NCBI GenBank assembly: GCA_031546805.1
Contig: JAVBJW010000023.1
Location: 1-61,848, forward strand
Source of the DNA: Anaplasmataceae bacterium
GTDB taxonomy: Bacteria; Pseudomonadota; Alphaproteobacteria; Rickettsiales; Anaplasmataceae
Direction: 5' to 3'
Length of the DNA: 61,848 bases
Under the pieces are notes generated by a model. That model did no database searches. It was not told where the DNA came from and saw only the letters and a list, made by a program, of their open reading frames with translations. The translations under genes were made by a program, and so were the position numbers. Below are positions 47,801 to 50,003 of the stretch, piece after piece (within the stretch, counting starts at the first letter, position 1; every line of letters begins with the position of its first letter).

Positions 47801-48724
47801 ATGGCTTTTCGTTTTATTCCAGATAATACAAATATTAATTTTATTAAATATGGAAAAATTACACTTTTATTAAGTATTATACTGACTATTTTATCACCAT
47901 TTTTGATTTTCATGCATGGTGTTAATTTGGGTGTTGATTTTACTGGTGGAGTTCTTATAGAAGTAAGATCAGAGAATAACCTTTCTATTGCTGATATAAA
48001 TAATCAGTTAACAGAAAAAGGATTTACTAGTTTTACAATTCAAAGTTTAAAATCTAATCATGACATGGTAATACGTTTAAAAAATGATAAAGACACAACT
48101 AGCGATATTTTAATAAAAAAAATAAAGAAAGCATTAGAGGAAAAGTTAGAAGGCATAACGTACCGTAAAGTAGATTATGTAGGTCCACAAGTTAGTTCTA
48201 AGCAAATATTGAGAGGAGTAGCATCTATAGTAATCGCTTTGGTTGGGATATTTTTTTATATTTGGCTCCGTTTTAGCTGGCAATTTGCTTTGGGCAGTGT
48301 TGCTGCTTTAATTCATGACGTAGCTTTAGTTTTAGGATTTATTAGCATTACAGATATAGAATTTAATCTCTCCTCAATAGCTGCGCTGCTGACGGTGATT
48401 GGTTATTCTATCAATGACTCAGTGATAATATATGATCGGATTAGGGAATATTTGAAAAAATCAATAAACAAGTCTTTAGCAGAGGTAATCAACGTCAGTA
48501 TTAATAGCACATTATCACGTACAGTTTTAACTTCCGGTACAACTTTGCTCGCTTCTATTCCACTAATACTTATCTGTTCAGGGACTGTTAAAGATTTCAG
48601 TATTATTATATTTTTTGGTGTCTTAGTAGGTACGTATTCTTCAATATTTATATCTGCTCCTATATTAACTTGTAGAAGTTTAGTAAATAAAATTAAAGAA
48701 GAGAAAAACTTAAAAAGCCCATAA
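47801..48724 (+). CDS. secF: Protein translocase subunit SecF
   Basis: GVDFTGG, VGP, HDV, GYSINDSVIIYDRIRE, GTYSSIFI. Confidence 0.96.
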   Translation: MAFRFIPDNTNINFIKYGKITLLLSIILTILSPFLIFMHGVNLGVDFTGGVLIEVRSENNLSIADINNQLTEKGFTSFTIQSLKSNHDMVIRLKNDKDTTSDILIKKIKKALEEKLEGITYRKVDYVGPQVSSKQILRGVASIVIALVGIFFYIWLRFSWQFALGSVAALIHDVALVLGFISITDIEFNLSSIAALLTVIGYSINDSVIIYDRIREYLKKSINKSLAEVINVSINSTLSRTVLTSGTTLLASIPLILICSGTVKDFSIIIFFGVLVGTYSSIFISAPILTCRSLVNKIKEEKNLKSP

Positions 48725-48726
48725 AG

Positions 48727-49791
48727 CTTGTATCTTCATAAAGTAAGGTATTAGAGCAAAATATCTTACAAGAATGGTGGAGCTGCGCTAAAGCTAATGC
48801 CAATAAGACAGGTTTACTGTCATTCCAATAGAGTTGGAAGACTGTTTGGAATTATATCCTGTATTTACCCAACTCTCAATTTTGTTTATAGTTTTGGAGG
48901 AGGTTTTATGCAAGCAAATGCTATTTTAGGTGTACTAAAAAGAAATTTGATGTTTATTTACTAGTTAACCGATAAGAAACGGCACAAAGTTTTTTATAAT
49001 AATCAAGATGGCTTTGCAAAACTTGTAGCTTGGTCCAATAATTATGGAGCAGATCTTATTCATCTGTATCTTAAATCAAGGTATGTGGTAAAAATGAACT
49101 ACTTCAAAACAAAACAGATAAGTCAGACGCTGCCATGATTGCTAGATTTTGTATCGCTAACAAACCTAATCTTTGGCTTCCTGAAGTTAGGCGTTTAAGA
49201 GATCTTTATCGTTGTTTGCAAGCACTTAAAGATGATAAGTTGCAACAGATGAATCGCTTGGAAAATAAAAATATGGATTCCAGTTGTAAACACAAGTCAT
49301 ACTTGAGGTAATTGCTACAATAGATGAACAAATTATTGTTTTAAAAAAAGAAATTAATGAGCATATTGATAACTACTAAAAAATATGGTAAAGATCATCA
49401 AGACTGTAAAAGGTGTAGGGCATATTACTGCTATTGTCGCAGAAATGCCATCAGTTGGTAATTTTAGCAATGTTAGATAATTTGCAGCTTTTGCTGGTCT
49501 AAATTCAGGACATTACCAATCAGGATCATCAGTAAGCAAAAGAAGTCGAATATATAAATGGGAATTGGATCTGAGCGTATTCGCAAAGCTCTTTTTATGC
49601 CAGCTATAGTAGTCAAGAATCATATTTTCAAAAGTTTTGCCAGCGTTTAGCAAGTAAAGGAAAATGTCCAATTATTATAGTTGTTGCGTTAATGAGAAAG
49701 CTAATGCATGTATTTTTCGGTATTTTAAAAAACAATCAACCTTTTTATTGTCATTTAGTTGCATAATTTTTTGACAGTTAAGACAGTATAT
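48727..49791 (+). mobile_element. IS110-family element, transposase pseudogene with both ends retained
   Basis: RBS GGAGGAGG and ATG at 48908, stop at 49766; motifs KTDKSDAAMIARF, KGVG, FAAFAGL, QSGSS, RKALFMPA, ALMRKL; left end CT-TGTAT, right end TTGACA...ACAGTAT. Confidence 0.88.
48740..48880 (+). ncRNA. Putative IS110 bridge RNA (5' hairpin, target-binding loop, donor-binding loop)
   Basis: Stems 48743-48752/48760-48769, 48772-48780/48817-48825 and 48830-48837/48869-48876; loop segments match the flank and the element end. Confidence 0.7.
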
Positions 49792-50003
49792 GTTCAATGC
49801 CGATTCTGTCATTCCATCACGTTTCAGTCGCAAAACACCGAGAGAATATGATAAGGAACTATATAAAGAAAGAAATTTAATTGATTTAATAAACTAAAAC
49901 ATTTCCGTAGAGTTGCTACTCGTTACGACAAATTAGCAATTTCTTTCTTATCTTTCGTTGCTGGTATCTATCTCTTGCTAAAGTAATTGTCGACACTGCC
50001 TAG
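49792..50003 (+). mobile_element. IS5-family (IS427-like) 3' remnant
   Basis: REYDKELYKERNLI...KLKHFRRVATRYDKLA; ends GTCGACACTGCCTAG. Confidence 0.8.

Follow-up and report, generated by a model that had tools for sequence, protein, structure and literature searches.

A decayed IS621-type IS110 element behind secF in an Anaplasmataceae bacterium, with relatives that carry varied bridge-RNA guides

The locus and the ends of the element

The window analysed here, a 61,848-nucleotide stretch from an Anaplasmataceae bacterium (contig JAVBJW010000023.1), carries an IS110 element that begins with the CT at 48727, ends with the AT at 49791 and lies immediately 3′ of the host gene secF. The locus is composed as follows (window coordinates):

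47801–48724, + strand: secF, host gene (PF02355, E 6e-63), its stop codon overlapping the left target flank
48720–48726, + strand: left target flank (LT), CATAAAG
48727–48728, + strand: left CT core, the left boundary of the element
48729–48736, + strand: right donor arm TGTA with the predicted −10 hexamer TATCTT (48731–48736)
48908–49766, + strand: IS110 recombinase pseudogene in six pieces, found by tblastn with an intact relative (P0001); PF01548 piece at E 1e-4
49771–49776, + strand: predicted −35 hexamer TTGACA of the circle-junction promoter
49783–49789, + strand: left donor arm ACAGTAT, the right end of the element, identical in IS621
49790–49791, + strand: right core, read as AT
49792–50007, + strand: right flank, a 3′ piece of a multicopy IS5-type element (homology 49796–49999) followed by CTAG-GC-AG

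A sequence-only reading of this DNA had bounded the element by CT-TGTATCTT at 48727–48736 on the left and by TTGACA (49771–49776) and ACAGTAT (49783–49789) on the right. These letters and coordinates are correct, and copies in relatives, together with contigs of related sequencing runs, locate the ends in the same places. Two such contigs (X3 and X4) match secF with nine and one differences, respectively, continue through the target flank, stop exactly at 48728 and then diverge from the window, and in a third (X2), which has an internal deletion of 833 nt, both junctions are preserved; together these contigs fix the left boundary.

From 17 genomes we drew 34 copies that include a left end, and added five of 17 metagenome matches that show enough of the RNA; the left core is CT in 32 of the 34 copies and GT in the two G114 copies (L058 and L041), in which the right end is altered as well. 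At the right end, CT is found in 21 of the 22 copies with a readable end of standard length, with no target duplication beyond the 2-nt core; the sole exception is the window, where the AT had already been recorded. Once the ends are joined over the 2-nt core, the two hexamers stand 17 nt apart, the circle-junction geometry that had been proposed from the window alone, and TTGACA precedes TATCTT by the same 17 nt in 21 of these 22 copies, TATCTT itself being present in all 22, the spacer being variable in sequence and the geometry being that of IS621. A sigma-70-type promoter would arise across the circle junction, with an activity that we infer from the one described for IS621 (PMC11208160).

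Right ends are ~180–230 nt longer in G032a, G117, G103a and G099 and ~900 nt longer in G107 (L035, L036/L057/L065, L038, L039 and L050), and these members have a TTGACA-like inner stretch at the usual place and their true ACAGTAT-CT end further out. The C-terminal tail of secF (48677–48724) is longer than in three congeners and ends in the insertion target, and a partial second copy of the secF 3′ end is present in a congener (L082, G001:C1 186503–186626).

A bridge RNA that has lost most of its guides

Between the left end and the pseudogene lies a decayed bridge-RNA gene with these parts:

48739–48893, + strand: decayed bridge-RNA gene, 97.1 bits with a covariance model built without the window
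48743–48770, + strand: 5′ hairpin of 10 bp, present in the single-sequence fold, with two-sided changes in 4 of 10 pairs
48773–48825, + strand: target-binding loop and closing stem, with two-sided changes in 2 of 11 pairs and 98% of cells paired
48787–48795, + strand: left target guide (LTG) GCTAAAGCT, the sole guide left whole
48807–48811, + strand: GACAG, remnant of the right target guide (RTG) after an 8–9-nt deletion
48830–48876, + strand: donor-binding loop, outer stem retained, both guides gone
48838–48847, + strand: scaffold AAGACTG joined to TTT over a 9-nt deletion that took the left donor guide (LDG)
48865–48869, + strand: scar left where 10 nt were deleted across the right donor guide (RDG) and the inner stem arm

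The LTG matches CATAAAG-CT at 7 of 9 positions, just as it had been read from the window. GACAG, previously taken to be its right-hand counterpart, is indeed present, but it is what remains after the deletion through the RTG rather than a whole guide, and its reading is ambiguous in that the AC in front of the AG that pairs with the core might be part of the inner stem. The LDG proposed earlier, AAGACTGTTT at 48838–48847 with 8 of 10 matches to the element's own end, has to be given up: its letters are there, but they combine a scaffold arm with a deletion scar, as relatives read AAGACTG and then the 9-nt guide ACAGTATCT, which the window has lost through a 9-nt deletion after 48844. The suspected absence of the RDG is borne out by a 10-nt deletion relative to intact copies.

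Compared with those copies, the eroded state noted at the outset amounts to nine deletions of at least 4 nt, three in the RNA (9, 9 and 10 nt) and six in the ORF (7, 82, 9, 7, 6 and 7 nt). Those in the RNA remove most of the RTG, all of the LDG and most of the RDG, so the RNA, which the sequence-only reading had called self-consistent, is as it stands neither self-consistent nor functional; and because two catalytic residues of the recombinase are deleted as well, neither the RNA nor the protein can work. An independent run is identical to the window over 48580–49044, and with zero differences there the deletions are not assembly errors.

Folded as a single sequence, the left end does no better than its shuffles (z −1.29 with 20 of 200 shuffles as good for the window; z −0.69 for an intact copy). 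Of the three stems proposed earlier, such a fold returns the 5′ hairpin and the AGAGTTGG/CCAACTCT stem but not the middle one; the alignment of relatives supports all three, and the stems covary. Across 18 left ends, 96.7% of the cells are paired and six pairs show two-sided changes, which occur in 27 cells compared with 9.3 in shuffles, and the covariation score lies above all 500 shuffles. Sliding the partners lowers pairing to 35–51%, a generous control given that the structure was drawn from the same sequences. The helices of the donor loop show no two-sided change in this alignment.

When 11 relatives, with the window excluded, are used to build a covariance model, the window RNA scores 97 bits; the model also recognises the RNA of a Wolbachia prophage IS110 (55 bits), of a Rickettsia plasmid IS110 (31 bits) and of the real IS621 (25 bits, E 8e-4). 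Together with the covariation, this upholds the IS621-type layout assigned from the window, with a three-part RNA at the left end. The Wolbachia prophage record (L099) and the Rickettsia plasmid record (L098) represent more distant IS110 elements, with 41–45% protein identity and recognisable bridge-RNA-like left ends. A search of the RNA against Rfam returned no family and a single chance miRNA match. One RNA-library contig (X1) covers 48580–49044, but it begins in secF and may be DNA, and the joints listed for the contigs of related runs include none between a right end and a left end.

Guides follow the insertion sites

The flanks of relatives follow their guides on both sides, as the first reading of the window implied. 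Over nine guide groups, which we delimited from guide similarity and in which kin among the copies are not independent, the LTG agrees with its own left flank at 5.4 of 7 positions and with the flanks of other groups at 1.9 of 7, a result equalled by 2 of 362,880 permutations (1 of 40,320 when the window is left out). In seven groups a single contig holds both the guide and the right flank; there, the RTG matches its cognate flank at 3.3 of 5 positions compared with 1.3 of 5, with 6 of 5,040 permutations as good.

The LTG fits its flank perfectly in G107 and G093, among others, and in two G077 copies that differ in their outer flanks; the G077 flank also terminates four truncated metagenome copies, in which the guide is not visible. 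On the right side, G107 matches at 5/5 and G117 at 14/15. Poor fits to the own guide are found in G099 (1/7 on the left and 0/5 on the right), G069c (2/7), G001a, G032b and G114 (3/7) and on the right of G032a (2/5), and the LTG of G026a/b matches at 1/7, with a 1-nt deletion in the flank. The right flank of G032a (L035) begins with TGTAT and resembles the element's right donor arm, not its guide; it is possibly a donor-type half-match insertion.

For a single copy, a 5/7 match to the left flank is weak evidence, being reached by 2.4% of the 130,288 CT sites in this genome; 0.4% of all these CT sites match the five core-proximal bases. The target TAAAG-CT, put forward from the window, stands for this copy but not for the family, in which at least nine guide groups track their own flanks; TAAAG-CT is therefore one programme among several, and re-targeting in this family works through changed guides. 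Members of the commonest guide group lie in a palindromic repeat that has 110 copies in G076 and 135 in G119 and is absent from this genome, and the G076 guides match one variant of the 110-copy repeat letter for letter. In relatives, the LDG and RDG match the donor junction, which is invariant, so that no covariation signal is possible there.

The right junction and a possible inversion

The right flank starts at the point where other IS5 copies read GCAAAAG-CT-GT, exactly so in 4 of the 11 copies listed. This site fits the window's guide better than the secF flank does (6/7, the core and two further bases), and only 24 of the 130,288 CT sites equal it. From 48728, X3 and X4, which lack the element, pass into an IS5 right end that lies on the other strand, with joints to 50005 and 50003, respectively, and the window's CTAG-GC-AG at 50000–50007 is the reverse complement of the X3 sequence there.

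We see about an even chance that the right flank is not the original neighbour and that, after insertion, the recombinase acted a second time and inverted ~215 bp, from the secF target to another matching site in the adjacent IS5. In vitro, a site matching one arm plus CT suffices for IS621, and half-match recombination of this kind would permit a second reaction between a junction of the inserted element and a nearby target; it is described for excision and off-target insertion, and its extension to a natural inversion scar is ours (10.64898/2026.08.31.748434). Against an inversion, the window lacks, past CTAG-GC-AG, the 5′ part of IS5 that a clean event predicts, the joints in X3 and X4 rest on 32 and 62 letters, and the IS5 ends could be separate insertions.

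The missing 5′ part of IS5 beside the window's copy also fits a somewhat less probable history, in which two ordinary insertions, one behind secF and one inside IS5, were fused by homologous recombination or deletion, or a single insertion was followed by a plain deletion. That secF and sdhB are not adjacent in three congeners, and that the right junction departs from the IS5 site by the core change and one extra base, would agree with such a fusion. It is harder to reconcile with the IS5 end that lies directly behind the same CT in X3 and X4 in opposite orientation, with X3 reading the reverse complement of the window's CTAG-GC-AG, and a second IS110 copy is absent from the assembly (91.6% complete).

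A syntenic empty site was sought in the three congeners, where secF has other neighbours. We also considered the left flank as an IS5 remnant on account of an ADKA motif, and rejected this as intact IS5 relatives read ADKGYD. The decayed IS5-type family with CTAG sites, to which the right flank belongs, occurs at more than 20 other places in this genome, and many contigs end in it.

Distribution of the family

The further intact copies that the sequence-only reading had hoped to collect from this genome (G000; 1.1-Mb assembly) did not appear: BLAST, PF01548 and the RNA model each found no other copy in it. DNA searches place the element family in 22 of the 98 genomes from the host's family, most of them Wolbachia-type; 20 of them are among the 60 genomes of one genus, in which the named records are Wolbachia, and the family also occurs in one congener. 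Among the 17 metagenome pattern matches, seven are chance and five are too short to show the guide. An order-wide search, with two candidates scored each, yielded 8 of 400 genomes, the single match outside the host's family being chance, and no DNA-level relatives were found in the E. coli genomes, phages, plasmids or viral contigs searched.

The DNA of the window's element is 82–84% identical to four full-length relatives, above the 76–79% identity of its secF to those of congeners, which suggests that the element may have been transferred between genera. A tiny, internally deleted remnant in a congener (L007, G002:C34 2617–2715) joins the ORF start to a piece near the ORF end. Within single genomes, several dead copies at separate loci have the same many deletions in common (L062/L045/L019 in G026, L061/L043 in G109 and L063/L069/L070/L046 in G119), which suggests gene conversion or movement in trans. 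The tree supports one Wolbachia-type clade, leaves the window's position at 87/99 and includes four rows that contain non-homologous sequence (G069c, G115a, G099 and G103b); because it is mostly poorly resolved otherwise, the independence of recurrent deletions is demonstrated in part only.

The recombinase

Two of the DEDD residues, the first Asp and the Glu, are missing from the window copy through 7-nt and 82-nt deletions; each is essential in IS621 (PMC11208158). A full ORF of 322 residues is retained in 5 of the 34 copies and in one metagenome copy. An intact relative scores above cut-off for PF01548 and PF02371 (DEDD RuvC-like and Tnp20 domains), of which the window has homologous pieces only, and its best PDB match is IS621 (E 6e-67). 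The proteins of all six full-length relatives have equivalents of D11, E60, D102, D105 and S241, and they agree with IS621 at 126–129 of 320 residues, the IS621 protein used for comparison differing at one position from the structurally solved one.

Full ORF, whole RNA and both ends occur together in four G076 copies (L042, L060, L067 and L068; 0–14 differences) and one G032 copy (L035). A metagenome contig of 1206 bases (L108) has a complete ORF of 322 residues and lies with both ends in the repeat target, a 25–26-nt deletion having removed its LTG.

Deletions of near-constant size

After insertion, the window copy eroded through nine deletions that measure 6–10 nt except for the one of 82 nt. 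In the family alignment, 33 of the 39 distinct deletions of at least 4 nt are 7–9 nt long, and several recur at identical positions in two or more branches of a weak tree; the deletion-size mode in Wolbachia-type IS110 copies is 8 nt. Indels between the repeat copies of G000, which are unpolarised, fall into 310 clustered events, with 86, 19, 23, 4, 4, 23, 79, 33, 18 and 1 events of 1 to 10 nt, respectively. A second peak spans 6–9 nt; its mode of 7 nt is about as high as the 1-nt class, and the peak persists under three other gap penalties. Microhomology at these indels equals the random expectation (none in 48% versus 50%), and the 74 microhomology-free events share no dominant start motif.

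As in the spectra of bacterial pseudogenes, short indels erode dead DNA here; those spectra, however, follow a power law with an excess at multiples of three and 43% microhomology (PMC6054270 and PMC2817411), whereas the present ones peak at 7 nt in this genome or 8 nt in the Wolbachia-type copies, with microhomology at the random level. A search of the open literature found no report of a 7–8-nt deletion peak in Wolbachia or endosymbionts. Clean deletions of near-fixed length that recur at the same places may point to a specific cut-out-and-rejoin activity, and the 7–8-nt peak would be the mark left on these endosymbiont genomes by a repair or nuclease activity not known so far.

Of 35 deletion sites in the family, 7 lie in the left end, a part that accounts for 17% of the length; with no enrichment in the RNA, the guides were not singled out. 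A recombinase that deletes its own guides by cutting guide DNA was rejected on the same count and for want of CT-to-CT junctions.

It might be argued that the shortened loops are a natural working variant, either a compact guiding RNA or a target-loop-only RNA acting in trans, since the RTG deletion recurs in G026, G109, G069a/b and G121 and the LDG deletion in G099, G103, G107, L100 and L113, and since G026 has several near-identical short-form copies. We regard this as very unlikely: a full ORF is found in no short-form copy, the close sisters G114 and G069c retain the long form, the loop deletions share their 7–9-nt size with those in the ORF and show the above lack of enrichment, IS621 requires guide pairing and tolerates mismatches poorly (PMC11208160), and this genome holds no other recombinase or RNA copy.

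Interpretation

Taken as a whole, the observations are in all probability best explained by 48727–49791 being a dead copy of an IS621-type IS110 element. By analogy with IS621, its ancestor likely moved as an excised circle, with the bridge RNA likely transcribed from the promoter formed at the circle junction; the two RNA loops likely paired the element's own ACAGTAT-CT-TGTA junction with the target (GC)TAAAG-CT-GT, both the pairing and the subsequent strand exchange being modelled on IS621. That the stems and guide matches arose instead by chance, in the AT-rich DNA that precedes an IS110 pseudogene, with the protein doing the targeting, might draw on the single-sequence fold, the lack of an Rfam family and the frequency of 5/7 matches, but it is scarcely credible given the guide–flank covariation on both sides, the stem pairing against slid partners and the model match to IS621.

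The element itself corroborates, in a host group new to it, a mechanism already known. Few genetic tools exist for Wolbachia, and the intact members, four in G076 and one in G032, are candidates for a native programmable recombinase there, the G076 guide fitting the repeat of ~110 copies. The relatives further offer a set of naturally re-programmed guides at 39–40% protein identity to IS621. Whether the larger picture holds in all its parts at once, namely an undescribed cut-out-and-rejoin deletion process, a possible natural inversion scar and a native programmable Wolbachia recombinase for a repeat of 110–135 copies, we consider evenly balanced.

Comparison with known systems

Among the papers listed in a search of the open literature, none joins Wolbachia and bridge RNA, and the family's RNA motifs were not found in the searched part of the supplements to PMC11208160. 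The Wolbachia elements ISWen2, ISWpi12–14 and IS110-wA resemble the present family in being IS110 elements, with mostly degraded copies, that are passed between strains; the papers describing them (PMC3205602 and PMC6401122) predate bridge RNAs. Identity with ISWpi12 was rejected by a single test, in which the published internal primer EC_4F matched no family copy and only a neighbouring element in L026/L062. The IS110 of the wMel prophage is 41% identical, and its RNA is related but different, scoring 55 bits with our model.

The closest parallels are IS621 and ISCro4/IS622, which likewise have a left-end RNA with a 5′ hairpin, a target loop and a donor loop, a −35 in the right end and a −10 in the left end 17 nt apart, and a recombinase with DEDD and Ser241 (PMC11208160, PMC11208158 and 10.1101/2025.05.14.653916). 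The donor ACAGTAT-CT-TGTA, which the sequence-only reading had attributed to IS621, is identical in the real element, where the LDG ACAGTATCA and the RDG region CCGTATTTGCAAGGTTGGT read nearly letter for letter as in the family, and one branch of the family targets a palindromic repeat, as IS621 targets REP (PMC11208160). Unlike IS621, the family has a shorter inner donor stem, TTGACA in place of TTGCAG as its −35, at least nine natural guide groups and, in some members, right ends that are 180–900 nt longer, and the window copy is dead. Judged by its sequences, the family shows the tested IS110-group features and would work like IS621, and the window copy is a non-functional member of it.
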